Shown one piece after another: positions 2,839 to 43,888 of a DNA stretch of 43,888 nt. Made by a program: the position numbers and the translations under genes. The stretch's first letter is position 1. Each line of letters starts with the position of its first letter. This DNA is from Squalus acanthias (Eukaryota), in assembly GCA_030390025.1 (NCBI GenBank), contig JASTWF010000328.1:496001-539888 (forward strand). The letters run 5' to 3'. The notes below the pieces were generated by a model. The model saw only the letters and a program-made list of their open reading frames with translations. It made no database searches and was not told the origin of the DNA.

Positions 2839-3522
2839 GTTAGATACAGAGAAAAGCTCCCTCTACACTGTCCCATCAAACACTCCCAGGGCAGTTACAG
2901 CACGGGTTAGATACAGAGTAAAGCTCCCTCTACACTGTCCCATCAAATACTCCCAGGGCAGGTACAGCACGGGTTAGATACAGAGTAAAGCTCCCTCTAC
3001 ACTGTCCCATCAAACACTCACAGGGCAGTTACAGCACGGGTTAGATACAGAGTAAAGCTCCCTATACACTGTCCCATCAAACACTCCCAGGGCAGTTACA
3101 GCACGGGTTAGATACGGAGTAATGCTTCCTCCACATTGTCCCATCAAACACTCCCAGGGTAGGTACAGCACGGGTTAGATACAGAGTAAAGCTCCATCTA
3201 CATTGTCCCATCAAACACTCCCAGTGCAGGTACAGCACGGGTTAGATACAGAGTAAAGCTCCCTCTACACTGTCCCATCAAACACTCCCAGGGCAGGTAC
3301 AGCATGGGTTAGATACAGAGTAAAGCTCCCCCTACACTGTCCCATCAAACACTCCCAGGGCAGGTACAGCACGGGTTAGATACAGAGTAAAGCTCCCCCT
3401 ACACTGTCCCATCAAACACTCCCAGGGCAGGTACAGCACGGGTTAGATACAGAGTAAAGCTCCCTCTACACTGTCCCATCAAACACTCCCAGGGCAGGTA
3501 CAGCACGGGTTAGATACAGAGT
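2839..3522. repeat. 67-bp tandem repeat, about 10.2 copies
   Basis: Unit gttagatacagagtaaagctccctctacactgtcccatcaaacactcccagggcaggtacagcacgg starts at 2839, 2906, 2973 ... 3509. Confidence 0.97.
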
Positions 3523-10095: not shown

Positions 10096-11345
10096 TTGAC
10101 TAATCTACTGGAATTTTTTGAGGATGTAACTGGTAGAATAGATAAGGGAGAACCAGTGGATGTGGTGTATTTGGACTTTCAGAAGGCTTTCGATAAGGTC
10201 CCGCATAAGAGATTAGCGTGCAAAGTTAAAGCACATGAGATTGGGGGTAAGGTAATGACTTGGATAGAAAACTGGTTGGCAGACAGGAAGCAACGAGTTG
10301 GAATAAACAGGTCTTTTTCCGAGTGGCAGGCAGTGACTAGTGGGGTACCGCAGGGATCGGTGCTAGGATCCCAGTTATTCACTATATACATTAATGATCT
10401 GGACGAGGGAACTAGATGTAATATCTCCAAGTTTGCAGATGACACAAAGCTGGGTGGGCGTGTGTGCTGTGAGGAGGATGCAGAGAAACTGCAGTATGAT
10501 TTGGACAGGTTGGGTGATTGGGCAGATGCATGGCCGATGCAGTATAATGTGGATAAATGCGAGGTTATCCACTTTGGTGGCAAAAATAGGAAGGCAGATT
10601 ATTATCTCAACGGCAATAGATTGGGAAAAGGGGAAGTGCAACGAGACCTGGGTGTCCTTGTGCACCAATCGCTGAAGGTAAGCATGCAGGTGCAGCAGGC
10701 GGTTAAGAAGGCAAATGGTATGTTGGCCTTCATAGCGAGAGGATTCGAGTACAGGAGCAAGGATGTCTTGCTGCAGTTGTACAGGCCTTGGTGAGACCAC
10801 ACCTTGAGTATTGTGTGCAGTTTTGGTCACCTTATCTGAGGAAGGATGTTCTTGCCATGGAGGGAGTGCAGCGAAGATTCACCAGACTGATACCTGGGAT
10901 GGCAGGAATGATGTATGAAGAGAGATTGGGTCGATTGGGCTTGTATTCGCTAGAGTTTAGAAGAATAAGAGGGGATCTCATTGAAACTTATAAAATTCTA
11001 ACAGGACTAGACAGACTAGATGCAGGAAGGATGTTCCCGATGGTGGGGGAGTCCAGAACCAGGGGTCACAGGCTAAGGATAAGGGGTAAGCCATTTAGGA
11101 CTGAGATGAGGATGAATTTCTTCACCCAGAGAGTGGTGAACCTGTGGAATTCTCTACCACAGTTCTTTAAATATATTCAAGAAGGAGTTAGATATATTTC
11201 ATAAGGCTAAGGGGATCAAGGGATATGGAGAGAAGGCAGGGACAGGGTACTGAATTTGGATGATCAGCCATGATCGCATTGAATGGCGGAGCAGGCTAGA
11301 GGGGCCAAATGGCCTACTCCTGCTCCTATCTTCTATGTTTTCTAT
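10096..11345 (+). mobile_element. CR1 LINE, RT core to 3' end (frameshifted)
   Basis: VYLDFQKAFDKVPH, GVPQGSVLG, FADDTKL in ORFs 10096..10794 and 10788..11204. Confidence 0.92.
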
Positions 11346-11549
11346 GCAGGGCGGCCGCGTTGCCAACAGTCATTGTGATGTCACCGGTGATGCAGGTCGG
11401 CCATGTTGTCAATCGTCATTGTGATGTCACTGGTGATACAGGTCGGCCATGTTGTCAATAGTCATTGTGATGTCACTGATGATGCAGGTCGGCCGTGTTG
11501 TCAATAGTCATTGTGATGTCACCGATGATGCAGGTCGGCCGTGTTGTCA
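11346..11549. repeat. 46-bp minisatellite, about 4.4 copies
   Basis: Unit gcaggtcggccatgttgtcaatagtcattgtgatgtcactggtgat starts at 11346, 11392, 11438, 11484, 11530. Confidence 0.95.
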
Positions 11550-16627: not shown

Positions 16628-19600
16628 CTCTTTTTGGTTTGACAAATCAAAATTTACTGTAAATCAATTAAAACTTTAAATGAAACTTAATAAATCAAAT
16701 CAAAATTTGGAAGTCCGGGGTGACGATGCACTCCAGCCCCCGCGGCGCCCACCGGTCGCGGAAAAACTCAAGCGTGCCGGCGGACACCGCGTGCTCCATC
16801 TCCAGGGCCACCCGGGCGCGAACATGGCCGCGGAAGAGAGGCAGGCAATCGGGCCGAACGACCCCCTCGACCGCCCGCTGCCTGGACCAATTAATGGCTT
16901 TCTTGGCCAGGCCCAGGAGCAGTCCTACGAGGAGGTCCTCCGACCTACCCGCTCCCCTCCGCACCGGGTGACCGTAGATCAGGAGCGTGGGGCTGAAGTG
17001 CAACCAGAAATTGAGGAGCAGCCCCTTCAAATAATGAAAGAGGGGCTGCAACCTCTCACACTCAATGTAAATGTGATAGACGGACTCCTCCAGGCCGCAG
17101 AAATGACAAGCAGCCTGGGAGTCCGTAAACCTACTTAAAATCCTATTGCACGGGACTGCTCCGTGCAACACCCTCCAGGCCAAGTCCCCAATAGAACAAG
17201 GGAAGACTCCCGCGTAGAGAGCCTTCCAATGGGGACCTTCGCCTCCGCCGGACGGCAGGATGGTACGCCAAGGCGTGTCCGGACGGCAGACGAAGATGGC
17301 AAAGTGGAGAGTGTGCAGGAGCAGCCCGTACAGGAAACGCCTCCGTGCGGATTGAAAGGGCACGGAGGGCATTTCTCCGAGAAGGCTCAAGTGGTGAGGC
17401 GGCGGCTCCCGAGGGAGGATTCGGGGCCGGGCGCCGATAAGGAATTCCGTCCGAACGGGGGTCAGTTCGGACGGGATTGCCCCACGTGCTTGAGCCTCCT
17501 CGACACACCTAGTGGAGACGGGGCCCAGTGCCACTTTTAGCGACTCGATGGCTTTGACCGCGAGCCGGACGTTGACCCAGGACATGCGCCTCGCCAACTC
17601 CTCCGGCGCCATCCAGCCCGCTCCTCCGCCATCGAGCAGGTCCCCGACTCTGGTCACCTTACCGGGCACAGCCCTGCCCTCCGCCAGCCAGCCGAACCCG
17701 CGGTCGTGGAGGTGCGGATTCCTGAACAGCGGCTCCCGAAGGACGGCCGCCGCTCCTGACGGGGGAGAACTGCGCTCGGAGGCGACGCTGTTCCAAACCC
17801 ATAGCAGTTCCTGGTAGAAGACAGGCAGCTCCCGCAGGCTGGCACGCGTGCCACCCACTCTCACAAACAGGAGCTGCGTGTCGTAATTGAGGCCGTGCAG
17901 CTGGCGGAAGAAATACGTCGCCAGCGCACGCCACCTAGGAGGATTCTCCACGTACAGGTATCTCTGCAGCGTCTGAAGATGGAAAGTCGCCGCCTGGGTG
18001 CGAAGGCACACCAGCGCCTGACCGCCCTCCCTAAGCGGGAGACTCAAAACCGCGGCAGAGACCCAGTGCTTCCTTTTGTCCCAGAAGAAGTTGACGAGCT
18101 TCTTCTGCATCTTGGCGACAAACGCAGGGGGAGGGATCAAAGTGACCAACCGGTACCACAACATGGCGGCCACCAGCTGGTTTATGACCAGCGCTCGACC
18201 CCTGTAGGACAACACTCGGAGCAGTCCTGTCCAGCGCCCTAGGCGAGCGGTGACTTTGGCCTCCAGCTCTTGCCAGTTCGCCGGCCAGGCGTCCTCGGCC
18301 GGGCTGAGGTAGACTCCCAGGTAGAGGAGGTGCGTGGTGCTCCAGGCGAAAGGCCCAAACTCCTCCGGCAGGGAGTCCACCCGCCATGGGCCCACCAGGA
18401 GTCCAGAACATTTCTCCCAGTTGATCTTGGTGGAGGATGCGTCCGAGTAAATCTGCTGGCATTCTCGCATCCTCCGCAAGTCGACGGGATCCGTGACCGC
18501 GAGGAGCACGTCATCGGCGTAAGCCGAGAGGACCACCTCCACGCCCGGCCCTTGCAGAGCCAGTCCCGTCAACCTCTTCCGCAAGAGGCGCAGGAAAGGC
18601 TCCACGCAAACGGCGTATAACTGACCGGACATGGGGCATCCCTGACGCACCCCCCTCCCGAAGCGAAGGGGCGCCGTCAAAGACCCGTTAACTTTAATCA
18701 GACACTCCGCGGCGGCGTACAGAAGTCGGATCCGGGCGACGAAATGCGTCCCGAACCCGAATGCGCGCAGAGTCCCGAAAAAATACTCGTGATCCACCCT
18801 GTCGAACGCCTTCTCCTGATCCACGGAAAGGAAGGCGACCGACAGACCAGCCCTCTGGGAATGGTGGACCAGGTCCCGGACCAGATGGATGTTATCGTGG
18901 ATACTCCGGCCCGGGACCATGTAGGACTGGTCGGGGTGGATCATGCGGGCCAGCACGGTGCCAAGGCGAGCAGACATAGCCCTGGCGAAAATTTTGTAGT
19001 CCGTGCTGAGGAGGGAGACCGGGCGCCAGTTCTTAAGTAGGCGGAGATCGCCCTTCTTGGGCAGCAGGACGATGACCGCCCTGCGCCAAGAGAGGGGCAT
19101 CTCCCCGGTCGCCAGACTTTCCCCCAGCACCCGCGCGTAGTCGTCCCCCAAGACGTCCCAGAACGCCCTGTGGAACTCCACGGTCAGCCCGTCCAGCCCC
19201 GGGGACTTGCCCCTCGAGAGCTGGCGCAGGGCGCCGGTCAGCTCCGCCAGGCTTAGCGGAGCTTCTAAATTCTCGGCGCCCTCCGGGCCGACCTTCGGCA
19301 GGTCCTCCCACAAAACTCTGCGCGCATCCTCGCTGGACGGATCCGAAGAGAACAGAGCCCCGTAATAGGCCCGGGCCTCCGCGCTGATGCCCTCCGGATC
19401 CGAGACCAGAGATCCGTCGTCGGCCAGCAGCCCCAAGAGCTGCTTACGGACCCCCCGTCTTTTTTCCAGCGAGTAGAAGAAGGGGGAGCCGCGGTCCAGG
19501 TCCCGCAGGAACTGGATCCGCGACCTCACGTACGCGCCTCGGGACCCGACCAGCTGCAGGTCCTTCAGCGCGCCCTTCTTCTCTTCGTACACCTTCCGCA

Positions 19601-20430
19601 GGGCCGGGTCCTCGACGACCTGACCGAGACGGGACTCCAGGTCGAGCACTTCTTTCTCCAATCGCCCGACCCGGGCCTCCCGCCTCTTGGTCGACCCCTT
19701 CGCGTACTCCTGACAGAAGACGCGGACGTGAGCCTTGCCCACATCCCACCATAGCCTCAAGGAGGGGAAGCCTCCCCGCTTCCTTCTCCAGTCGGCCCAG
19801 AACCGGCGAAACGAATCCCGGAACCGCGCGTCCTCCAGCAGCAGGTTGTTAAAATGCCAGTACGCGGACCCCCCCCGCGCGCGCAGCGGAGCGAGCTCCG
19901 CCCACACCAGGTGGTGGTCCGTGCACGGCACCGGCCGCATGGAAGCCGCCGGAACACAGGAGACGTACGCCCGGGAAATGTAAAGGCGGTCGATTCTGGA
20001 CCTTCCTCCTCCAGACCTCACGCTCGTGAAGGCGCTGGAGTCGGGATGGAGATTTCGCCAGACGTCCACCAAGTCGAAGGACCCGACCAGGTCCCGCAAC
20101 TTCTCCATCGCCGCTGGGCTTCGCGGGGGACCCGACCGGTCCCGCGCCTCGAGGGTACAATTGAAATCCCCCCCGAGGATGACGCACTCGCCCACGTCGA
20201 TGGAGCCCAGAAGAGCGGACACTTCTCCGAAGAAGCGCACTTGCTGCGCACCGGTCCGGGGGGCGTACACGTTCACTAAATGGAGCGGCACGCCTCCCAG
20301 GCGAACAGTGACCTGGAGCAAGCGGCCCGGCACGTGCTCCTTGACCCTCATGATCTCCGGCTGAAAATGCGGGGCCAGCAAGACAGCCACCCCGCAGGAA
20401 TTGTTAGAGAGGTGACTCATGCTGACCCCT
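16628..20430 (-). mobile_element. Tx1-clade (L1 group) non-LTR retrotransposon, 5'-truncated, ORF2 otherwise intact
   Basis: ORF 16695..20453 has APE endonuclease motifs (GGDFN, SRIDR, TDH), RT (DQEKAFD, RQGCP, YADD) and a C-terminal C-x2-C...H-x4-C; TSD cctggtgttg at 16618-16627 and 20431-20440. Confidence 0.93.
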
Positions 20431-20496
20431 CCTGGTGTTGTGCGACCTCTCAATTTTGTCCACCCCAGTCCAACAGCGGCATCTCTGCATCATGAC

Positions 20497-21122
20497 CTTT
20501 ATAAATAGAGGCATAGAGTACAAAAGCAAGGAAGTTATGATGAACCTTTATAAAACACTGGTTTGGCCTCAACTGGATTATTGTGTCAAATTCTGGGCAC
20601 TGCACTTTATGAAGGATGTGAAGGCCTCAGAGAGGGTGCAGAAAAGTTTTACAAGAATGGTTCCAGGGATGAGGGACTTTGGTTATGTGGATAGACTGGA
20701 GAAGCTGGGGTTGTCCTCCTGAGAGCAGAGAAGGTTGAGAGGAGATTTGATAGAGGTGTTCAAAATCACGAGGGTATGGACAGAGTAGATAGAGGGAAAC
20801 TGTTCCCATTGGCGGAAGGGTCGAGAACCAGAGGACACAGATTTAAGGTGATTGGCAGAAGAACCAAAGGCGACATGAGGAAAAACTTTTTTACGCAGCG
20901 AGTGGTTAGGATCTGGAATGCACTGCCTGAAAGGGTGGTGGAGGCAGATTCAATCACGGCTTTCAAAAGGGAATTGGATAAGTACCTGAAGTAAAGAAAT
21001 TTGCAGGGCTACGGGGAAAGGGCGGGGGAGTGGGACTAGCTGAAGTGATCTTGCAGAGAGCCGGCACGGGCTCGACGGGCTGAATGGCCTCCTTCTGTGC
21101 TGTAACCATTCTATGATTCTAT
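20497..21122 (+). mobile_element. Young CR1 3' fragment, near-identical to 8830-9445
   Basis: Direct sequence match including UTR and tail. Confidence 0.9.
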
Positions 21123-21197
21123 AAAATATTAGAAAGTTTGTGCCACAGAAGCACGAGGTTTATCTGCTTTTATTCATGAATTTAAAAAGTCTGTATT

Positions 21198-21870
21198 AAA
21201 ATCTGAGCCAGTGTGTTGTGAGACAAAGAGCCTTGTGTCCAATAAGGGGAATAAAGGCCCACAGCCTCCCCTGGCCCCGGGCCCTGAACAAGGGACTGGA
21301 GAAACTCGCTGCCCCGCGGATCAGACAATCAGCCGGCGCTAGTCCCGCCCCTCGGGCTCCCCGATTGGTTGGAGGACCCGCCGCCGGCTCGCTCCTCCAG
21401 CCCCGCCCCGCTCGCTCCCTATTGGTCGGAAGCTCACGTCAATCAGGCCGTGGGCCCGGGTCACGTGTCCCCAAGGAGATCACGTGCTCCGTCCAACTGA
21501 CTCCGCTCGGTCCGGGGCCTCGCGGACTCTCAGGTTTTTCTATTTCTCTTTATTCTCTCCCGATCCACCCCTCCCCCCCACCCCGCGCGATTCACCACCC
21601 AATCGGAGCGGAGAAAACTCACTTTGCGTCACCGATCGCGACTCTGTAACCGACACCAAGGCCTTTCCCCGGAATCCCCGCGCCGACTCCGTCCGACAGG
21701 ATCCGAGTGCGCATGCGCAGCTCCGAGTGGGGGAGGGGGTTGGTCCCATCTGGGCATGCGCAGTTATTGCCCTTGGTGACCGGGAGGGGTCGCTGTGCCG
21801 GACTCGGCACAAACCGCCGTCCCGCGTGCGCATGTGCGGACACTCGGCTGTCAATCAGCCAGAAGAGGTC
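21198..21870 (+). promoter_or_regulatory. CpG-island promoter (module A plus NRF1-rich segment)
   Basis: CCAAT/ATTGG, GC boxes, cacgtca, gcgcatgcgc and variants at about 21708, 21752 and 21827. Confidence 0.7.
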
Positions 21871-21887
21871 GCTGGTGAGACCAGTGA

Positions 21888-22550
21888 AGAAAGAAAGACT
21901 TGCATTTATATAGCGCCTTTCACCACCACCGGACGTCCCAAAGCGCTTTACAGCCAATGAAGTACTTTTGAAGTGTAGTCAATGTTGTAATCTGGAAACG
22001 CGGCAGTTAATTAGCGCACAGCAAGCTCCCACAAACAGCAATGTGATAATGACCAGATAATCTATCTTTTTGTTAACTCTGTTTCTCTCTCTACGGATGC
22101 TGCCTGGCCTGCTGAGTGTTTCCAGCATTTTCTGTTGTTATTTCAGATTTCCAGCATCCGCAGTATTTTGCTATTATCCTTTTGTTATGTTGATTGATGG
22201 GATAAACATTGGCTCGGACACCGGGGATAATCCCCTGCTCTTTCCCACATTACAGCAGTGACGACACCTCAAAAGTACTTCAATGGCTGTAAAGCACTTC
22301 AAGACGTCTGGTGGTTATGAAAGCACTGTATAAATGCAAGTCTTTCTTTCTCGAAATAGTGCCATGGGATCTTTAACATCCACCTGAGAGAGCAGACAGG
22401 GCCTCAGTTTAATGTCTCATCCGAAAGACGCCACCTCTGACAGTGCCTCAGTACTGCACTGGAGTGTCAGCCTGGATTTTTGTGTTCAAGTCTCTGGAGT
22501 GGGACTTGAACTGACAACCTATGCCTCAGAGGCGAGAGTGCTACCCACTG
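21888..22550 (-). mobile_element. Near full-length SacSINE1-like DeuSINE with two nested inserts
   Basis: tRNA-like head at 22500-22550; Deu-domain-like ggatgagacattaaac...aaagatcccatggcactatt; ctttc tail; nested opposite-strand SINE tail at about 22244-22350. Confidence 0.8.
22076..22175 (+). mobile_element. 100-bp Penelope-derived terminal fragment with an approximately 12-bp TSD
   Basis: actctgtttctctctctacggatgctgcctggcctgctgag... flanked by atc(t/c)ttttgtta at 22064-22075 and 22176-22187; a related piece lies at 39051-39110. Confidence 0.55.
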
Positions 22551-22574
22551 TCATCTTCCAAAATTCTATAGATG

Positions 22575-22820
22575 TTGCGGCTCCGCATGCGCACCCGATG
22601 TCCCAACCGCGGGGTTTTGTGCGCTGAGCATGCGCGTTGGGATGGGCGATTGTGGAGCAGGAGGGAGAGCGCGGGGGCCATGAGCACATGGGCGGGGCTC
22701 AGCGTCAATAGAGCGCTTTCTGGAGCGCCGGGGCTTGTGGGTATTACAGCCGCCATTACTGCTGATCCTTTCAACCAACCTGTGCAGCAGCTGGAGCCTG
22801 AAAATCAGCTTCACTGCCCC
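22575..22820 (+). promoter_or_regulatory. ZNF promoter module C
   Basis: Homologous to 4125-4340; NRF1-like gcatgcgc twice. Confidence 0.65.
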
Positions 22821-22995
22821 TAGGTTCGGAAAGGGGAAAATTAAACAACAGTTTGCCTCTGATCCTTTTCTGAACTTGATTTACAGGGTTATAGAAGTGG
22901 AGCAGTTACAGGCGGGAAGCTCAGACCAAACATCACGTCAAAATCTGACAGAGTCACTCGATTCATCCGGACCTGAATATCATCGGCCTTTGCAC

Positions 22996-23961
22996 ATGGA
23001 AGGAGAAAGCAGCGATCGCAGCGATGACAAACCGCACACGTGTTCGGTGTGTGGACGCGGATTCAGCCGATCGCCTGACCTGGTGAGACACGTGCACCGT
23101 CACACCGGGGAGAAACCGGGTAAAGGTGGGGACGGTGGGAAGGGATTCAGTTCCCCGTCTGCAATAGAAGTTCAACGGCGCAGTCACACCAGGGACAGTC
23201 CGTTCACCTGCTCCGTGTGTGGAAGGGGATTTGTTTGTTCATCCTACCTGCAAACACACCAGCGAGTTCACACTGACGAGAGACCGTTTCAATGTTCTGA
23301 CTGTGGGAAGAGCTTTAAAAGCTCCGGGGATCTGAAGGGACACCAGCGAGTTCACACTGATGAGCGACCCTTTAAATGTTCTGACTGTGGGAAAAGCTTT
23401 AAAAGCTCCCGGGATCTGAAGGGACACCAACACCTACACACTGGGGAGAGGCCGTTCACCTGCTCCGTGTGTGGGAAGGGATTCACTCAGTCATCCGCCC
23501 TCCTGTCACACCAGCTTGTTCACACTGGGGAGAGGCCGTTCACCTGCTCTGTGTGTGGAATGGGATTCACTCAGTCATCCACCCTCCTGACACACCAGCG
23601 AGTTCACACTGACGAGAGACCCTTTAAATGTTCTGACTGTGGGAAGAGCTTTAAAAGCTCCGGGGATCTGAAGAGACACCAACACCTACACACTGGGGAG
23701 AGGCCGTTCACCTGCTCTGTGTGTGGGAAGGGATTTGCTCGGTCCTCCAACCTGCTGGAACATCAGCGAGTTCACACTGGGGAGAGACCGTTCACCTGCT
23801 CTGTGTGTGGGAAGGGATTCGCTCGGTCCTCCAACCTGCTGGTACATCAGCGAGTTCACACTGACGAGAGACCCTTTAAATGTTCTGACTGTGGGAAGAG
23901 CTTTAAAAGCTCGAAGAACCTTAAGGGACACCAGTGTCTTCACACTGATCATAGAATCTAA
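22996..23961 (+). CDS. C2H2 zinc-finger protein, 10 intact plus 1 degenerate finger; stop supplied by a CR1 insertion
   Basis: Acceptor at 22884-22886; ATG at 22996 (cacATGG); last codons HRI* come from the CR1 tail. Confidence 0.8.
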
Positions 23962-24336
23962 CAGCACAGAAGGAGGTGATTCGGCCCATCGTGTCTGTGC
24001 CGGCTCTTTGAAAGAACTATCCAATTTAGTCTCAAACCCCAGCTTTATCCCCAGAACTCTGCAAACTAGTCCTCTTCAAGTACACGTCCAATCACCGTTT
24101 GAAAGTTCCTGTGGAACCTGATTCCAGCATCCTTTCAGATGGTGCGTTCCAGATCTTAACAACCCTCTGTGTGAAAACAATTCTCCTCATTCACCTCTAG
24201 TTCTTTTAGCAACTATTTTAAATCTGTGACCTTTGGTTACCGACCCACTTGCCAGAGTGAACAGTTTCTCCCTACTTGCTCGATCAAAACCCCTCATCAT
24301 TTTGAACCCCTCTATTAGGTCTCCTCTTAACCTTCT
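23949..24336 (-). mobile_element. CR1 3' fragment
   Basis: [19 protein letters not shown]...GHRFKI; catagaat tail. Confidence 0.85.
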
Positions 24337-26400
24337 GAGCTCACTGTACACCAGCGCACTCACACTGGGGAGAGGCCGTTCACTGAGCTCACTGTACACC
24401 AGCGCACTCACACTGGGGAGAGGCCGTTCACTGAGCTCACTGTACACCAGCGAGTTCACACTGGGGAGAGGCCGTTCACTGAGCTCACTGTACACCAGCG
24501 AGTTCACACTGGGGAGAGGCCGTTCACTGAGCTCACTGTACACCAGCGCACTCACACTGGGGAGAGGCCGTTCACTGAGCTCACTGTACACCAGCGCACT
24601 CACACTGGGGAGAGGCCGTTCACTGAGCTCACTGTACACCAGCGCACTCACACTGGGGAGAGGACCGTTCACTGAGCTCACTGTACACCAGCGAGTTCAC
24701 ACTGGGGAGAGGCCGTTCACTGAGCTCACTGTACACCAGCGAGTTCACACTGGGGAGAGACCGTTCACTGAGCTCACTGTACACCAGCGCACTCACACTG
24801 GGGAGAGACCGTTCACTGAGCTCACTGTACACCAGCGAGTTCACACTGGGGAGAGGCCGTTCACTGAGCTCACTGTACACCAGCGCACTCACACTGGGGA
24901 GAGGCCGTTCACTGAGCTCACTGTACACCAGCGAGTTCACACTGGGGAGAGGCCGTTCACTGAGCTCACTGTACACCAGCGCACTCACACTGGGGAGAGG
25001 CCGTTCACTGAGCTCACTGTACACCAGCGAGTTCACACTGGGGAGAGGCCGTTCACTGAGCTCACTGTACACCAGCGAGTTCACACTGGGGAGAGGCCGT
25101 TCACTGAGCTCACTGTACACCAGCGCATTGACACTGGGGAGAGGCCGTTCACTGAGCTCACTGTACACCAGCAAGTTCACACTGGGGAGAGGCCGTTCAC
25201 GGAGCTCACTGTACACCAGCGCACTCACACTGGGGAGAGGCCGTTCACTGAGCTCACTGTACACCAGCGCACTCACACTGGGGAGAGACCTTTCACTGAG
25301 CTCACTGTACACCAGCGAGTTCACACTGGGGAGTGGCCGTTCACTGAGCTCACTGTACACCAGCGAGTTCACACTGGGGAGAGGCCGTTCACTGAGCTCA
25401 CTGTACACCAGCGAGTTCACACTGGGGAGAGGCCATTCACTGAGCTCACTGTACACCAGCGAGTTCACACTGGGGAGAGACCGTTCACTGAGCTCACTGT
25501 ACACCAGTGAGTTCACACTGGCGAGAGGCCGTTCACTGAGCTCACTGTACACCAGCGCACTCAAACTGGGGAGAGACCGTTCACTGAGCTCACTGTACAC
25601 CAGCGAGTTCACACTGGGGAGAGACCGTTCACTGAGCTCACTGTAAACCAGCGCACTCACACTGGGGAGAGGCCGTTTACTGAGCTCACTGTACACCAGC
25701 GAGTTCACACTGGGGAGAGACCGTTCACTGAGCTCACTGTACACCAGCAAGTTCACACTGGGGAGAGACCGTTCACTGAGCTCACTGTACACCAGCGAGT
25801 TCACACTGGGGAGAGGCCGTTCACTGAGCTCACTGTACACCAGCGCACTCACACTGGGGAGAGGCCGTTCACTGAGCTCACTGTACACCAGCGAGTTCAC
25901 ACTGGGGAGAGGCTGTTCACTGAGCTCACTGTACACCAGTGCATTCACACTGGGGAGAGGCCGTTCACTGAGCTCACTGTACACCAGCGCACTCACACTG
26001 GGGAGAAGCCGTTCACTGAGCTCACTGTACACCAGCGCACTCACACTGGGGAGAGGCCGTTCACTGAGCTCACTGTACACCAGCGAGTTCACACTGGGGA
26101 GAGGCCGTTCACTGAGCTCACTGTACACCAGCGAGTTCACACTGGGGAGAGGCCGTTCACTAAGCTCACTGTACACCAGCGAGTTCACACTGGGGAGAGG
26201 CTGTTCACTGAGCTCACTGTACACCAGCGCACTCACACTGGGGAGAGACCGTTCACTGAGCTCACTGTACACCAGCGAGTTCACACTGGGGAGAGGCCGT
26301 TCACTGAGCTCACTGTACACCAGCGCACTCACACTGGGGAGAGGCCGTTCACTGAGCTCACTGTACACCAGCACACTCACACTGGGGAGAGGCCGTTCAC
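24337..26400 (+). repeat. 48-bp zinc-finger-derived minisatellite, 43 copies
   Basis: Unit gagctcactgtacaccagcg(agtt/cact)cacactggggagaggccgttcact = ELTVHQR(V/T)HTGERPFT; first unit 24337, last 26354 (42x48+1). Confidence 0.98.
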
Positions 26401-26974
26401 CTGCTCTGAGTGTGGGAAGGGATTGATTCAGTCATCTGGCCTTCTGACACACCTGCGAGTTCACACTGGGGAGAGGTCGTTCACCTGCTCTGAGTGTGGG
26501 AAGGGTTTCACTCGTTCATCCCACCTGCTGACACACCAGCGGGTTCACACTGATAAGAGACCTTTTAAATGTTCTGACTGTGAGAAGAGATTTAGAAGCA
26601 AAAAGGTTCTGCTGAGACACCAGCGAGTTCACACTGGGGAGAGGCCATTCACTTGCTCTGAGTGTGGGAAGGGATTCACTCAGTCATCCACCTTGCTGAA
26701 ACACCAGCGAGTTCACACTGATGAGAGACCATTTAAATGCCCGGACTGCGGGAAGTGCTATAAAAGTTCCGGGGAACTGACATTCCATCAACGTGTTCAC
26801 ACTGACGAGAGACCGTTCAGGTGCTCTCACTGCGGGACTGGGTTCAGGCAGTCATCTGAACTCACTGTACACCAGCGCACTCACGATGGGGAGAAGCCAT
26901 TCATCTGCTCCGTGTGTGGGAAGGGATTCACTCAGTCATCCAACATGCTGACACACCAACGAGTTCACAAGTGA
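26401..26974 (+). pseudogene. 3' part of a C2H2 ZNF gene (7 fingers), paralogous to 14919-16094
   Basis: Shares the [14 protein letters not shown] and [21 protein letters not shown] fingers and the 3' flank; no own start codon recognised. Confidence 0.75.
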
Positions 26975-28280
26975 CTGCAGGGGTTGGATTCTGCTGTTGT
27001 TGCTGTTGTTAATCACATCCAGGACTGAACCATGTTCATTCTGACAGTTGGGATTTGTTTCTGCTGATGTTAATAACTCCTGTAACTGGGCTGGAGTTGA
27101 TTTTCTGGATAGATGTCAAATAAATCAGCTTTGCTTTGAACAAATTGTTGTAGATTTTTTTCTTTCCCACCTGAGTGTTTAGCATCACCTGGCTGGAGCT
27201 CAGAAAGGACAATCTGGGGGAGGATCGTACGGCGGGAACAGAACTTCAGCCTGGACACAGTCCTTCAGGGCCACACTGAGAGGGGCAAACGGCACTTTGG
27301 TCTTTCTCGTCTCTCTTCACTGACAGCAAAGTCCCGTGTGGGTTAATCTCGAGGCCTGTAAGAAATGTGTCCCAGCCGCTCTCTTCCATGGTTCAGAGCT
27401 CCTAGGCACGGAACAGAAGGCTCCTTTACAACTGTGTTTAGAGTCAGGAAGAACAACGGTGAATGCTGGAAACGTGCTGTCAAATCAGAGATTGGTGTCA
27501 AACTGCGATCTGTTCCTGACTGAAAGTGAAACAGGTTTAAGTTTCCAGTCTAAATATGACTGATACTTATTCTACGAATATTTAACGTGTTTGTGTGACA
27601 GTCCTGAGTCTACCATTTTAAGGCAGGCGTTAACTCATTTAAAATAAACCCATTTAAAATAAATTGGTTAAATTCCGCATTAAAATAGCAGAGGGAGGAG
27701 TTCACAGGAGCCTGTTAACTGCTGGTACAATTATACAACAGACATTTGATCTCCAGATAAAGAAGGACCTGCAGCGTGTTTCCAGGAATTCCCTGTTTTA
27801 TTGATGTGTGTGTGTTAGACACCAGGATAACTAAAAATACACGACCCGGAACATCCACGGGGTGCGTTCCCGACAGTTACTCTGGGATCACTCCCACTGT
27901 GGAACTCCACCACTGACCCTGCTGAAGGTTGTAGGCTCGGGGAGTGGGGCCTCCAGGAGTGGACTGTAAGAAAGCTGGGTTCCGGTATCCTGACAAATAT
28001 ATGCTGAGGAACCAGAGGAATCCTTACTGAGGAACCGTGTGGGGTTTTACCTGCCTGCATAGGTCGAGGGGCGAATGATGCCTGACTCGCCGAAATTTGA
28101 ACCCAGTTTGTAACAAGATGAATTGAGTTTACAGAAGAATAGGGACAAATATCACCCACAATTGAGGGAGACAAAAGCAGCCATTAGAGAAGCTCAGAGG
28201 GATTTGGAAATGAAGATGCTGCACAATTGTGGTAATATTAGTAAAAATCTTTTCCAGCTGTGTCAGGAGTCAGAGGACAT
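26975..28280 (+). repeat. Inverted segmental duplication of about 13760-14918
   Basis: Colinear reverse-complement match over 3' UTR, spacer and old CR1 piece; about 145 bp extra at 27160-27300. Confidence 0.9.
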
Positions 28281-28284
28281 CGTT

Positions 28285-29405
28285 ACACAGAGTTACATCG
28301 AATTACAGAGTCTACAGCACAGGAACAGGCCATTCGGCCCCACTGGTCAATGCCGGTGTTTCTGCTCCACATGAGCCTCCTCCCACCCTCGTGTGGAGCG
28401 AAGGGCCAGGCAGCAGAATGGATAGAAAGATGGCGACAAAATCCGATTAGCATAACCTTCGATTCCTTTCTCCCTCATGCGCTTATCTAGCTTCCCCTTA
28501 AATGCAGCTGTGTTATTCCCCTCGACTACTCCTTGTGGTAGCACGTTCCACATTCTTACCTCTCTTCGGGTAAAGAGGTTTCCCCTGAATTCCCCATTGG
28601 ATTTATTAGTGACTTTCTTATAATTATGACTTCTAGTTTTGGACTCCCACACAAGTGGAAACATTTCCCCGACATCCACCCTATAGAAACATTTCATAAC
28701 CTTAAAGACCTCGATGAGGTCACCCATCAACCTTCTCTTTTTTAGACAAAAGAGCCCCAGCCTGTTCAGCCTCTCCTGATAAATATATCCTTTCAGTTCT
28801 AGGATCATCCTTGCAAATACAATTTGCACCTTCTCCAGTGCCTCTATAATATATAATATTTTATAATATGGAGACCAGAACTGTGCACAGTTCTCCAAGT
28901 GTGGTCTAACCAAGGTTCGATACAAGTTTAACATAACTTCTCTGCTTTTCAATTCTATCCCTCTAGAAATGAGCCCCAGTCCATTGTTTGCTCCTTTTGT
29001 GGCCTTATTAACCTGCGTCGCTACTTTTAGTGATTTGTGTATCTGGACCCCGAGATCCCTTTGCTTCTCTACCCCATTTAGACTCCAAGTAATTTCCCAG
29101 TAGTGTGTGGCCTCCTTATTCTTCCTACCAAAATGCACCACCTCACACTGATCTACATTGAAATTCATTTGCTAATTAAACACCCATTCTGCAAATTTAT
29201 TCATGCCTTCTTCCATTTTCTCGCAGTCTTCCTCATTGTTATCTACACATCTCAATTTGGTGTCATCGCCGAATTTTGAAATTGTACTTCCGATTCCCAG
29301 TGCAAATCGTTTAGATAAATGGTGAACAACAGTGGTCCCAGCACCGATCCCTGTGGAACACCACTTCCCACCTTTTGCCAGTCTGAGTAGCTACTCCCAA
29401 CCCCT
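28285..29405 (-). mobile_element. CR1 RT-to-3' fragment
   Basis: ORF 28347..29168 (RDLGVQIHKSLK...VRPHLENCAQFWSP); GVPQGSVLGP at about 29335-29365. Confidence 0.88.
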
Positions 29406-32791: not shown

Positions 32792-33164
32792 GGTGCAGGT
32801 ATCCTTGTGTCTCTCCAGGTTGGACGATCGGTTGAAGCCTCGTCCACACACAGAACACGTGTACGGTTTCTCCCCGCTGTGAATGGTGTGATGTTTCTTC
32901 AGGCTGTGTAACTGGTTAAAGCTCTTTCCACAGTCAGTGCACTGGAACACTCTCACTCGGGTGTGTGTGTCTCGGTGCTTTTCCAGTCACACTGATGTTT
33001 GAAATCTTTTCCCACAGACAGAACAGACAAACATTTCTCCTTCCACATTCAAAGGCCGATGATATTCCCTGTAAAAGTAGTTTACAAAGGTCATCACTGT
33101 AAGTTCAGGATTAAAATGCAGAACAGATAATTCTAGTTTCTATGGAACATTCTCTCCTCTCTTA

Positions 33165-34050: not shown

Positions 34051-34305
34051 TATTCAATTGTTACCACAGTTGCCTTCTGTGAAGGGTTAATAATAAATGC
34101 ATTTTGCTGTGAAAGCAATTAAAACATTTCCAGTATATAAATAGACAGATGCATCAAAATATTAAAATTGTGGGAGGGAGGGCAGTGCTCGCCCAGGGCC
34201 CAATAAACAACGGAATTCTTGTTTCCCAACCCAATGTTTAGAAGATGAAGTCCCAGAGCTGCCTCTGGCTCGGTTCCACCTGCCCTATTCTGACAAGCTG
34301 AGGTG

Positions 34306-34362
34306 TTGGTCAGTGCACTGTGATTGGTCAGTGCACTGTGATTGGTCAGTGCACTGTGATTG
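34306..34362. repeat. 18-bp tandem repeat, 3 copies
   Basis: ttggtcagtgcactgtga. Confidence 0.9.
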
Positions 34363-34414
34363 TCCTGTGGGCAGAAAATGGCAAATCTAGAAATATGACC
34401 AAAATAACACATTT

Positions 34415-34970
34415 TAACCCCAAAGCTGTAAATCCCCGTCCCACACACTCTCCCTCCTCCCTGTGCTGAAATCCAAACCCATCGCACCATCTCCAACATT
34501 TCTTTCCTCCACTCCCAGTTTTCTCCCTCCCTCTACTCTGGTTGGGTTCAGTTCCACACCCGCTGTGTGCAGAGTGAGAATAAAATCAATGAGTCAATGA
34601 TTGTCTCTCCTGGTCACTGGGACCCTGAAGCCCCGCCCACTCTTGTTCCTGGCCAAGATGGCCGCGCATGCGCCGTGATCCCGCCCTGTCCAAGATGGCG
34701 GCCAGTGACCCCGCTGACCCGGCCGGCCGGGCCTGTCACCGCGGGGCAAACACGGGGCCTGTGGGCTCTTATTCGGGGCCTGAGGCCTACACCGGGTGTT
34801 TATGAAGCTTTCCAGCCCAGCCGCTGGTCCAATTCCTCCCCGAGCCCACAATCTCCTACCGTCCTCCTGGAAGCGTGTCTTCCTCATCAGCCCAAAGTCT
34901 CCACTGGCACTGCGCATGCTCAGAGCACTGCCCTGTCTTGCGCCTGCGCACTGGGCTCCTGTAGTCATTG
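34415..34970 (-). promoter_or_regulatory. Promoter/leader of the 31949-32791 ZNF gene
   Basis: 34415-34700 is an inverted homolog of about 39460-39770; YY1, NRF1 and SBS-like gactacaggagcccag motifs. Confidence 0.72.
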
Positions 34971-35049
34971 ATAGGGCACATTCTCCTGCGCTGAGGATTC
35001 TGGGTAAACACCTCGCCATTGAAAATCCCAATTGTAAATATTTGTTTAC

Positions 35050-37889: not shown

Positions 37890-39050
37890 CACAGGATAGG
37901 TTTGGATGAAGATGGCCCTTCAGCCCATTTAATCTCCTTCTAGAATACCAACCTTACCATCTTTCCATTACAGCATCTGTTTCTTCATTACTCCAGTGTC
38001 CTGGCATAAACCACCCTGCTGGCAACCCATTTCAGCTGTTGATCACCCTCTGAGTAAAGAAAGATTTCCTGCCGTCTATCCTAAATTTGCTCTCCACACC
38101 CATGAACCCTGTGCCCTCATGTCCTGCTGCCCAGATGTATCTGAAAGTATTGTTCCAGATTTACTTTCTCTATCCAGGTAAGTATTTATATACCTCTATT
38201 AATGTTGCTTCTAAGACATGTCTTCTTGAGGTTGAAGAAGAGGACTTGCTGATCAAGTTGTGCATCATAACTCTTCCCTCTAACACCATGGATCAGGGTT
38301 TGTTGCTTTCTTCTGGATTGCCAGTAAGACCTGGATGGCTCCCATAATATCACGGTGACCAGGACTATATGCAGCATACCAAGTGCAATGTGACCAGGGC
38401 AGCTTCGGCATTAGCTCTAGGTATTTGAACTGAACTGATTTGACAATATGATCCAGCATGCTATTTCCTTTGTTTATTGATGAGCCACACCTTTTAGGAA
38501 TGATGAGTGGTGACTCATCTAACACCCTAAGGTTTGTCTCAACTTCCCACTTGACAAGTTCTATCCCACCCATTTCTATTTTTCCCTAATAAACAGTATC
38601 TTGCCTTTTTCTATATTGAGTTTCATTTGCCAATGGTCATTCTTTGAAAGCTCCCTTTGTAAGATCCTAGTTGCCTTATCTGAATTCACATTCTTTCCTA
38701 GCTTGGTGTCATCTCCAAATTTAACTGTTTTATATTCTGATTCTGATTCCAGGTCACCTTTGTAGACCAAGACCAGGAGGGATTCCCAGCATGGACCCCT
38801 GGGGTAACCCACTCAGTATCCTCCCTTTGCAACCTAGCTTCACCTGGATAGTAATTAATCAATATGCATGTTTCACCTTGAAACCTACTGACCTCAGTTT
38901 GTAAAGAAGTCTCTCATGCAATACCTTATCAAAGGCCTTTTGGATGTCCAGGTACACTACATCATTTAATTTGGGATACGCCCCATTTAATTCGGGATGT
39001 CACCTCTTTCAAAAAAAGTCTAAGAAGTTGGTTAGGGAAGATCTATCTAT
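37890..39050 (-). mobile_element. Old, highly degenerate CR1
   Basis: KFGDDTKL, gggtaccccagggg-like PQG region, aaggcctttgataagg (KAFDK). Confidence 0.7.
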
Positions 39051-39239
39051 TAACTCTGATTCTCTCTCCACAGATGCTGCCTGGCCTGCTGAGTATTTTC
39101 TGTTTTTATTTATAATAGAGAAGGGTGAAGCTGTGTCTGTGCCTTTAACGGCAGCTGCCCAGACACAGGGTGCTGTCCCTTTAAGAATGAGTGACGGGGA
39201 CAATCCAGATTCCTCTTTCAGGTTTTCTGGGGAGGATGT

Positions 39240-39867
39240 CAGGAGCCCAGCGCGCAGGCGCGGGACAGGCTCTGCGCGGTCGCCGGCGGAGCTGCAGGTC
39301 GGCGGGAGCGGGGTCGGGAGATTAATAAACTGCGGGTAGGCCGCGCCGCAGGGTTTATAAAGTTGGAGAACGGCCTCTGGCTCGAATGAGATCCAGCGGC
39401 CCGGTCTGTGTTCACCGGACGGCAGCGGTGAGGCTTTTTCTCGGTGACAGGCCCGGGTTACGCGCCGCCATCTTGGTGGAGGAAAGACGGACCGGTTCCA
39501 CCTGCAGCAGGACGCATGCGCGGCCATCTTGGTACAGGAACAGTGAGTGGGCGGGGCTTCAGGGTCCCAGTGACCAGGAGAGACAATCATTGACTCATTG
39601 ATTTTATTCTCACTCTGCACACAGCGGGTGTGGAACTGAACCCAACCAGAGTAGAGGGAGGGAGAAAACTGGGAGTGGAGGAAAGAAATGTTGGAGATGG
39701 TGCGATGGGTTTGGATTTCAGCACAGGGAGGAGGGAGAGTGTGTGGGACGGGGATTTACAGCTTTGGGGAACAAGAGAGGAAAGAATGTTCCATAGAAAC
39801 TAGAATTGTCTGTTCTGAATTTCTATCCTGTACTTACAGTGATGACTTTTGTAAACTCCTTTTACAG
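39240..39867 (+). promoter_or_regulatory. ZNF promoter and 5' leader (module B, acceptors at about 39624 and 39867)
   Basis: tttataaa, gccatcttgg x2 (YY1), gcatgcgc, GC box; ttttattctcactctgcacacag and ccttttacag acceptors. Confidence 0.72.
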
Positions 39868-39988
39868 GGTTTTAGGAGGGGAAGATTTACAGACGGGAAA
39901 CTCAAACCAAACATCACCTCAACATCTGACAGAGTCACTCTGTTCATCAGGACCCGAATATCATCGGCCTTTGAATGTGGAAGGAGAA

Positions 39989-40780
39989 ATGTTTGTCTGT
40001 TCTGTCTGTGGGAAAAGATTTCAAACATCAGTGTGACTGGAAAAGCACCGAGACACACACACCCGAGTGAGAGTGTTCCAGTGCACTGACTGTGGAAAGA
40101 GCTTTAACCAGTTACACAGCCTGAAAAAACATCGCACCGTTCACAGCGGGGAGAAACCGTACACTTGTTCTGTGTGTGGACGAGGCTTCAACTGATCGTC
40201 CAACCTGGAGAGACACAAGGACACCCGCACCACGGAGAAACCCTGGAAATGTGAGGACTGTGGGAAGGGATTCAATTACCCATCCCAGCTGGAAACTCAT
40301 AGACGCAGTCACACCGGGGAGAGGCCGTTCACCTGCTCCGTGTGTGGGAAGGGATTCACTCACTCATCTGCCCTCCGATCACACCAGCGAGTTCACAGTG
40401 ATGAGAGACCTTTTAAATGCGCTGATTGTGGGAACTGCTTTAAAAGTTCTGAGGGACTAATTCAACATCAGCGAGTTCATACTGACGAGAGACCGTTCAG
40501 TTGCTCTCACTGTGGGAAGAGGTTCAGGCATTCATGCAACCTCATTGTACACCAGCGAGTTCACACTGGGGAGAGGCCGTTCACCTGCTCCGTGTGTGGG
40601 AAGGGATTCATTGGTTCTTCCCAACATCTGAGACACCAGCGAGTTCACACTGGGGAGAGGCCATTCACCTGCTCCATGTGTGGGAAGGGATTCACTCAGT
40701 CATCCAACCTGCTGACACACCAGCGAGTTCACGATCGACTGCAGGGGTTGGATGCTGCTGTTAATCACATCCAGGACTGA
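39989..40780 (+). pseudogene. C2H2 ZNF gene or pseudogene: leader fingers with TGA at 40034 and 40193, then 6 fingers from the ACG at 40232
   Basis: Same leader as the 16.0 and 32.9 kb genes; terminal TGA replaced by CGA at 40736. Confidence 0.7.
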
Positions 40781-42470: not shown

Positions 42471-43888
42471 CAACCCCCCTCACCCCAACTCCTCTTTCAC
42501 CCCAACTCTCCAACCCCCCTCACCCCAACTCCTCTTTCACCCCTACTCTCCAACCCCCCTCACCCCAACTCCTCTTTCACCCCTACTCTCCAACCCCCCT
42601 CACCCCAACTCCTCTTTCACCCCTACTCTCCAACCCCCCTCACCCCAACTCCTCTTTCACCCCTACTCTCCAACCCCCTCACCCCAACTCCTCTTTCACC
42701 CCTACTCTCCAACCCCCCTCACCCCAACTCCTCTTTCACCCCTACTCTCCAACCCCCTCACCCCAACTCCTCTTTCACCCCTACTCTCCAACCCCCTCAC
42801 CCCAACTCCTCTTTCACCCCTACTCTCCAACCCCCCTCACCCCAACTCCTCTTTCACCCCTACTCTCCAACCCCCCTCACCCCAACTCCTCTTTCACCCC
42901 TACTCTCCAACCCCCTCACCCCAACTCCTCTTTCACCCCTACTCTCCAACCCCCCTCACCCCAACTCCTCTTTCACCCCTACTCTCCAACCCCCCTCACC
43001 CCAACTCCTCTTTCACCCCTACTCTCCAACCCCCTCACCCCAACTCCTCTTTCACCCCTACTCTCCAACCCCCCTCACCCCAACTCCTCTTTCACCCCTA
43101 CTCTCCAACCCCCCTCACCCCAACTCCTCTTTCACCCCTACTCTCCAACCCCCCTCACCCCAACTCCTCTTTCACCCCTACTCTCCAACCCCCTCACCCC
43201 AACTCCTCTTTCACCCCTACTCTCCAACCCCCCTCACCCCAACTCCTCTTTCACCCCTACTCTCCAACCCCCCTCACCCCAACTCCTCTTTCACCCCTAC
43301 TCTCCAACCCCCCTCACCCCAACTCCTCTTTCACCCCTACTCTCCAACCCCCCTCACCCCAACTCCTCTTTCACCCCTACTCTCCAACCCCCCTCACCCC
43401 AACTCCTCTTTCACCCCTACTCTCCAACCCCCCTCACCCCAACTCCTCTTTCACCCCTACTCTCCAACCCCCCTCACCCCAACTCCTCTTTCACCCCTAC
43501 TCTCCAACCCCCTCACCCCAACTCCTCTTTCACCCCTACTCTCCAACCCCCTCACCCCAACTCCTCTTTCACCCCTACTCTCCAACCCCCCTCACCCCAA
43601 CTCCTCTTTCACCCCTACTCTCCAACCCCCCTCACCCCAACTCCTCTTTCACCCCTACTCTCCAACCCCCTCACCCCAACTCCTCTTTCACCCCTACTCT
43701 CCAACCCCCTCACCCCAACTCCTCTTTCACCCCTACTCTCCAACCCCCCTCACCCCAACTCCTCTTTCACCCCTACTCTCCAACCCCCCTCACCCCAACT
43801 CCTCTTTCACCCCTACTCTCCAACCCCCTCACCCCAACTCCTCTTTCACCCCTACTCTCCAACCCCCCTCACCCCAACTCCTCTTTCA
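42471..43888. repeat. 39/40-bp G-free tandem array, more than 35 copies, runs off the window
   Basis: Unit caacccccctcaccccaactcctctttcacccctactctc; variation almost only in C5/C6 run length. Confidence 0.98.

Follow-up and report, generated by a model that had tools for sequence, protein, structure and literature searches.

A minisatellite of half zinc fingers beside a truncated LINE in Squalus acanthias: anatomy and possible origin

How does a minisatellite begin, and how can one come to consist of half a zinc finger? The starts of minisatellites are poorly explained, and the accessible text of PMC3389668 credits the postulated birth mechanisms with only 6% of the human tandem repeats derived from transposable elements. 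The window analyzed here (the whole stretch of 43,888 bp) carries six or more C2H2 zinc-finger exons with 53 canonical fingers, lying amid LINE fragments. One of the exons is interrupted by a LINE and by an array of half fingers, and the locus offers a candidate for a further route, that is, seeding of an array from target DNA at the 5′ junction of a LINE.

The half-finger array and its neighbors

The features of the locus are as follows:
22996-23961, plus strand: upstream zinc-finger ORF from ATG to TAA, 321 aa, with 10 canonical fingers and one degenerate finger
23948-24336, minus strand: 3′ fragment of a 5′-truncated CR1-type LINE, with the last 49 ORF2 codons, the 3′ UTR and an octamer-type tail
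23948-23949, unstranded: LINE 3′ junction, a 2-bp overlap (AT) of the Asp codon and the tail
24334-24336, unstranded: LINE 5′ junction, a 3-bp microhomology (TCT), two mismatches and then four matching bases, at a unit seam
24335-26399, plus strand: minisatellite of half-finger units
24663/24664, plus strand: additional base (+1) in unit 7, where the G and A alleles of a variant site stand adjacent in the unit
25508-25510, plus strand: CGA>TGA stop in unit 25, a CpG transition
26400-26974, plus strand: seven intact C2H2 fingers with the usual stop of the family and no usable start codon upstream

Read unit by unit, the array consists of 43 head-to-tail units, 42 of them of 48 bp and one (unit 7) of 49 bp, with a total length of 2065 bp and a GC content of 57%. 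TRF returned a period of 48, 43.0 copies and 94% matches over 24335-26400, in agreement with the 43-copy half-finger array of the original prediction, and the unit lies within the 10-100 bp of head-to-tail minisatellite units. Each unit translates as ELTVHQR(T/V)HTGERPFT, that is, a C2H2 finger reduced to helix and linker, with no CxxC hairpin, and the only cysteine of the units comes from one R>C change in unit 34. C2H2 arrays combine the CxxC hairpin and the HxxxH helix at a period of 28 residues; here the period is 16 residues. The PF00096 profile scored 22.5 bits on the array against a cut-off of 25.2, with the best stretch at profile positions 15-23, and no stretch passes alone. The SacI site, suggested earlier for a digestion, is present in the sequence of 42 of the 43 units.

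The additional base that had been placed at about 24664 is the one in unit 7, which may be either an out-of-register hybrid or a consensus error. After it, the frame meets the single TGA at 25508 and enters the seven fingers, whose first Cys codon is at 26402, as had been read. This in-frame entry results from the copying of the 48-bp unit out of a coding frame.

The upstream ORF has its closest relatives, among the fetched proteins, in shark and ray models with 65-74% identity. The LINE cuts into its last finger at His-Thr-Asp, and the final 3 residues and the stop (23961) of the ORF are LINE-derived. The seven-finger block shows 86% ungapped identity over 570 bp to a paralogue at 15829-15260. 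Upstream of the interrupted exon, there are two GC-rich promoter-like stretches (21300-21850 and 22570-22740) with CCAAT-type and GCGCATGCGC-type motifs, which we take to be promoter motifs. Elsewhere in the cluster, the paralogues at 33025 (minus) and 39998 (plus) have a common in-frame TGA in their first finger, and the ORFs 34119-34971 and 39009-40089 have identical starts in opposite orientation, which indicates an inverted duplicated segment.

The array departs from its four main unit types by 20 substitutions in 2016 bases, 8 of which are CpG transitions (CpG odds ratio 9.2, P 4e-5, with two T/V-recombinant changes left out). It holds 648 distinct 31-mers, 40% of them seam-free and 51% seam-free or consensus. 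In the word comparison, 74 sampled words, taken as a random draw from the distinct 31-mers, were sought in read-derived contigs, and array words occurred in 20 listed runs from 9 studies. Run X1, which may be the source sample, had 0.73 of the 74 words and thus passed the 0.51 ceiling (P 5e-5), and run X2, from another sample and study, had 0.54 and passed the seam-free ceiling of 0.40 (P 0.008). The lower share of this second sample (0.50-0.54 vs 0.73) may reflect either an allele difference or coverage. In a third sample (X9), a 113-base contig bridges one seam with 43 and 38 bases on either side. The shares of 0.31-0.39 in organisms B-E are uninformative, since 0.40 is reachable without any seam word. 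The seam pattern gave no match in metagenome contigs; patterns of ordinary fingers likewise gave none in metagenome and viral contigs, so these blanks carry no meaning.

The CpG decay and the array-specific words in read-derived contigs argue against an assembly artefact, either of the whole array or of its copy number, and such an artefact is extremely improbable. In its favor, no listed contig spans the array, the copy number of 43 is that of the assembly, and the additional base of unit 7 could be a consensus error. Against it, apart from the word shares of X1 and X2, the variation is dominated by substitutions and enriched in CpG, unlike that of the 40-bp array at 42471, which varies in homopolymer length. 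The view of the array as a by-product rather than an artefact is thus supported.

The 40-bp satellite itself (42471-43888) has at least 35 copies, is strongly C-rich on the plus strand, and runs off the end of the window; it varies almost only in the length of one homopolymer, which has the look of errors or of extreme youth. Two more minisatellites, at 2839-3522 (67 bp, 10 copies) and 11344-11549 (46 bp, 4.5 copies), show scattered substitutions.

Parental types and order of the units

Two variant sites distinguish the units. The first is T/V at unit positions 23-25, with 20 T-type and 23 V-type units, which are the two interspersed variants already recognized in the original prediction. The second, not mentioned in the original prediction, is G/A at unit position 41. 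All four combinations of the two sites are present in about random proportion (VG 18, TG 16, VA 5 and TA 4 of 43), and the variants are interspersed along the array.

The T-type is 2-5 bases off the three SSELTV fingers of the window, and the proposed descent from the SSELTV finger is upheld. The V-type matches none of the three and has the majority sequence of ordinary fingers at this site; it therefore looks chimeric. In detail, three bases of the V block are changed to the ordinary-finger majority, and the A allele is common in ordinary fingers. Judging from these sequences, both would stem from a second finger rather than from point mutation. Two units are recombinant within the 3-base T/V block, and one has both G and A. 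Asp-type linkers are found in none of the 43 units compared with 12 of 40 paralogous fingers, so the donor pool was narrow, with only two parental linker types. For the same reason, general conversion from the finger pool of the family was rejected as the main source of variants. At this locus, paralogous linkers of a shark-type zinc-finger cluster have exchanged segments shorter than a finger.

Private changes of the units are mostly single, and the recurrent ones are located at CpG or inside the T/V block. Four of the eight testable ones match paralogue alleles, where 1.7-2.1 are expected, which is not significant (P 0.07-0.13).

The order of the units resembles that of shuffled arrays, with runs of 25 vs 22.4 and 13 vs 15.2, and a longest repeated block of 5 vs 5.4. 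In toy simulations, a longest block of at most 5 appeared in 0-4% of the runs of six duplication-only models and in 53% of independent draws; three of four models with frequent conversion gave probabilities of 0.11-0.24. Both order statistics were matched together in 0-1.5% of duplication-only runs, 0.07-5% of conversion runs and 11% of independent draws. Plain slippage is unlikely, since the duplication-only toy models rarely yield the observed order. As far as such toy models reach, either conversion would have shuffled the array thoroughly or the units would have been templated independently.

Two other modes of growth were set aside. Hairpin-driven expansion finds weak signals in the DNA folding of unit pairs (z = +0.63 and +0.44 for the plus strand, -1.95 and -1.47 for the minus strand). 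A rolling-circle origin from a multi-unit circle was rejected because the array is without higher-order repeat.

Coding potential of the array

On the plus strand there is no ATG between 24230 and 26400. The finger frame is shut by a TAA at 24328, directly before unit 1, and the upstream gene terminates at the stop inside the LINE. The 20 further substitutions of the array comprise 5 silent and 15 replacement changes (expected silent fraction 0.29); three zinc-ligand histidines are lost and one change is a stop. A His-rich protein, one of the suggestions of the original prediction, is unlikely because of the missing ATG, the frameshift, the stop and the neutral-looking substitutions, and the suggestion is not sustained. 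PRDM9-type arrays have whole-finger units and an open, started frame; the array has half-finger units, no ATG, a frameshift and a TGA.

Protein searches with three half-finger queries gave best identities of 43% (best 120 of 8000 scored candidates), 50% (best 150 of 1.84 billion representatives) and 53% (best 120 of 3810). The retrieved matches are ordinary finger arrays, which dominate the rankings, so that short half-finger arrays could be missed. No half-finger array was present in 489 fetched proteins with 6391 fingers, which are mostly non-shark and selected as coding. The hairpin-less pattern occurred once in this set, with a spacing of 21 residues, and a near-identical pattern was found at 12 steps in the frame of the window. 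Rfam gave no match in 21000-28500. None of the listed runs is recorded as RNA, and those that are RNA by guess contain 0.14-0.34 of the sampled words, a share that ordinary fingers could supply.

A functional array, be it a His-rich repeat protein or a linker-antisense RNA regulating many zinc-finger mRNAs, is highly unlikely. In its favor, the unit length is divisible by three, a frame open to 25510 follows a possible acceptor at 24317-24318, the minus strand has an open frame of 600 codons, and the 113-base seam-crossing contig belongs to a run guessed to be RNA (X9), which is not proof of transcription. Set against these points are the closed and decayed plus-strand frame with its neutral silent fraction, a minus-strand frame without Met, a LINE fragment without its promoter, and the lack of a similar protein or an Rfam family in the searches above. 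The array looks like a neutral, non-coding minisatellite. It is also probably unimportant as a functional element, because it lies within a truncated copy of a large gene family.

The minus-strand frame extends over 24629-26431. On the same strand, at 24187-24696, antisense units 1-7 are in frame with the CR1 ORF2 tail, probably by chance.

The LINE 5′ junction and the origin of the array

The original account of the locus had the anatomy of the array right but missed its left flank, where about 390 bp are LINE, and the 5′ junction of this LINE is the main clue to the origin. The fragment shows 71-73% identity over 372-399 bp to three further copies in the window. The C-terminus of its ORF2 is homologous to reverse transcriptase-bearing copies (45% over 49 aa, E 1e-12, against an ORF overlapping an RVT_1 ORF at the end of the latter). 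Its tail (23948-23957) is one octamer plus 2 bases, common to other copies, and the octamer motif is presumably of CR1 type. It also appears as a non-LTR tail in the accessible text of PMC5381603. The LINE is without a target-site duplication, as the fingers differ on its two sides.

Read contigs were compared for 23800-24420 in 4 of the 20 listed runs, among the contigs listed. Over 286 bases, the LINE differs by 1 base from contigs with depths of 288-345, which probably represent the subfamily consensus. The fragment would therefore be young, with an age compatible with the 0.5-1% decay of the array. The part at 24020-24305 is near-identical to very high-depth contigs of organisms A and B, which suggests a young and abundant subfamily common to both. 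One organism B contig that crosses the LINE 3′ junction was set aside, because it shows 8 differences over 86 bases and reaches only 18 bases into the LINE.

Unit 1 begins exactly where the LINE homology stops. Intact LINE copies part from the window sequence two bases past the 5′ microhomology, and at least 4 read contigs of other LINE copies, among those listed, cease matching at 24336. The junction falls on a unit seam, which about 3-4 of 48 phases would allow and homology does not force; in two longer LINE copies, annealing sites of 7 matches in 9 bases exist at 27-30 of the 48 phases. The phase coincidence thus has a chance probability of about 6-8%, for a single locus tested after the data had been seen.

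The coincidence of seam and LINE end, together with the flank-templated additions of zebrafish CR1/L2-type elements, leads us to favor a minisatellite seeded by flank-templated synthesis at the LINE 5′ junction and then expanded and shuffled, a reading to which we attach about an even chance. From the observed anatomy, junction, phase coincidence, closed frames and neutral-looking decay, we infer an order of events in which templated re-priming, the size of the deletion and later conversion are the conditional parts. Reverse transcription of a CR1-type LINE would have started in a zinc-finger exon, primed at its His-Thr-Asp codon. The truncated cDNA would then have paired, over 3 bp at its end, with the helix of an SSELTV finger further downstream. 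Target DNA would have been lost in the process, 48-53 bp of it if this finger was the next one. During joining, helix plus linker may have been copied and the new strand released, to be primed again at the same position, in part on a neighboring ordinary finger with a shared linker; the outcome would be two parental types of 48-bp unit in a few copies. The units would then have been multiplied to 43 and shuffled by slippage and a putative gene-conversion-type exchange, followed by decay. The smallest target loss of 48 bp, which applies if the SSELTV finger adjoined the interrupted one, equals the unit length, probably by coincidence.

Other observations bear on this seeding. LINE and array have compatible ages (1/286 vs 20/2016). 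The finger order "KSFKSS-type ending His-x-Asp, SHCG-type, ordinary" occurs at 40418-40670 and in protein P0115, matching the proposed arrangement before insertion. As in flank-templated additions, the added DNA resembles the flank, because the last unit continues seamlessly into the next finger and SSELTV fingers are within 2-5 bases; the length differs, with 2065 bp against "several extra nucleotides". No empty site was seen among the fetched proteins or listed read contigs. In the search for the ancestral gene, generic fingers swamped the matches to the upstream ORF, finger-order typing of the fetched proteins was uninformative and exact look-ups gave 0/3. Against the seeding, the best pairing of the seam (4 bases with one bulge) uses an intact finger, which a pre-insertion origin fits equally, toy models with heavy conversion match both order statistics in fewer runs than independent draws, and a high-depth junction contig (below) hints at copies elsewhere. 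The microhomology-driven amplification of the original prediction is placed correctly inside a zinc-finger exon, but microhomology is weak as its driver, as the parent finger offers 1 bp of exact match at period 48 and a 6-of-10 match at period 49.

An array older than the LINE is rather unlikely but deserves most weight among the alternatives. Loss of a CxxC hairpin, by a deletion of 36 bp with or without whole fingers in addition, would set two near-identical 34-bp linker segments 48 bp apart, and this or a 48-bp slippage duplication would have seeded the growth, the LINE removing the left edge later. A single event of this kind would explain why the V unit is chimeric and why the variants occur in all four combinations, the bulged seam pairing requires the intact finger that it supposes, and LINE pieces are dense here (one CR1 query has 16 matches in the 44 kb, its own site included). 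Birth from non-contiguous repeats is also an accepted model in the available text of PMC3389668. This reading requires two coincidences, a young LINE ending at the array edge and also on a seam, and a hairpin-less step that was met once in 6391 fingers of the mostly non-shark, coding-selected proteins. Less probable still is a single burst, in which most or all 43 units were written in one insertion by telomerase-like reiterative copying of the broken target end, through the LINE reverse transcriptase or a repair polymerase that picked one of two finger templates at random each time. The shuffle-like order suits it, and independent draws fit best (P of a block of at most 5 is 0.53 vs at most 0.04 in the six duplication-only models); the mostly unique private changes and the compatible ages of LINE and array agree with it as well. 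On the other side, the literature covered gave no precedent for such synthesis over 2 kb, three of the four conversion models, which are toys, also allow the short block, and paralogue-like private changes are not significantly in excess. Interspersed variants are, moreover, normal in conversion-mutating autosomal minisatellites (PMC2599865, accessible part). Were a single burst the true course and a general one, new tandem repeats would arise time and again where CR1 elements insert into periodic exons.

It is very improbable that LINE and array were copied together from elsewhere as one member of a family, through gene duplication or an SVA-like composite retrotransposed RNA. SVA-like composite VNTR retrotransposons have dispersed copies, a shared structure and target-site duplications. 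Here no target-site duplication is identifiable, and the word shares of other organisms stay inside the ceiling without seam words. The contig across the LINE 5′ junction in run X1 (2 differences) has a depth of 183, where 5 of the 7 other listed contigs of the run have 12-28, but it includes only 19 array-side bases, short of the 31-base bridging rule, and depth is no copy number. It is a hint that the junction exists at other loci and may not have formed here. The spread of array words over the listed runs also suits this reading.

The preferred seeding at the LINE junction has its nearest counterpart in zebrafish ZfL2-1/ZfL2-2, CR1/L2-type LINEs for which the available parts of PMC4245944 and PMC4760211 (citing Kajikawa 2012) describe microhomology, target truncation, at times long, and "several" extra 5′ nucleotides templated by the flank. 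The locus shares with them the 5′-truncated insert, short microhomology, target loss and added DNA identical to the flank; unlike those additions, the array is a 48-bp unit repeated 43 times. The supplements of PMC4245944, which list junction sequences, could hold repeated additions. Rare and single additions are described for R2 in the accessible text of PMC11331408, where "snap-back" and "extra template" 5′ junctions similarly involve a cDNA end extended on nearby DNA or another RNA before joining; snap-back yields reverse-complement fusions, whereas the array is direct.

As a minisatellite, the array resembles MS32, MS205 and CEB1, as far as the available part of PMC2599865 describes them, in its 10-100 bp unit, GC-richness, interspersed variants and recombinant units. 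What sets it apart from them is a unit derived from a coding motif of the host, with paralogue differences at both variant sites. Models of birth from non-contiguous or short direct repeats (Taylor and Breden 2000, Haber and Louis 1998, as cited in the accessible part of PMC3389668), like minisatellites derived from transposable elements, have a periodic parent sequence that provides the seed. Unlike the former, the locus has no direct repeat of 5-10 bp at period 48 (1 bp exact), and unlike the latter its unit comes from the target of the LINE and not from the LINE. The zinc-finger minisatellite of PRDM9, in the part of 10.64898/2026.09.10.750150 that is accessible, is likewise a zinc finger-derived tandem array of near-identical units. 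The array differs from the whole coding fingers of PRDM9, a unit of 84 bp, in its 48-bp unit, which is without both cysteines and not translatable.

Neither a half-finger array nor a minisatellite born at a LINE 5′ junction was found in the literature covered, with subscription papers mostly outside its scope. The seeding predicts that flank-derived arrays whose seam coincides with the end of a truncated CR1 should be detectable genome-wide.

Other LINE material of the window includes an uninterrupted ORF2 of 1264 aa at 16695-20489 (minus strand) with endonuclease, RVT_1 and zf-RVT domains, which we take to be Tx1-like. It stands head to head with a truncated CR1 fragment at 20490-21125 (plus strand).
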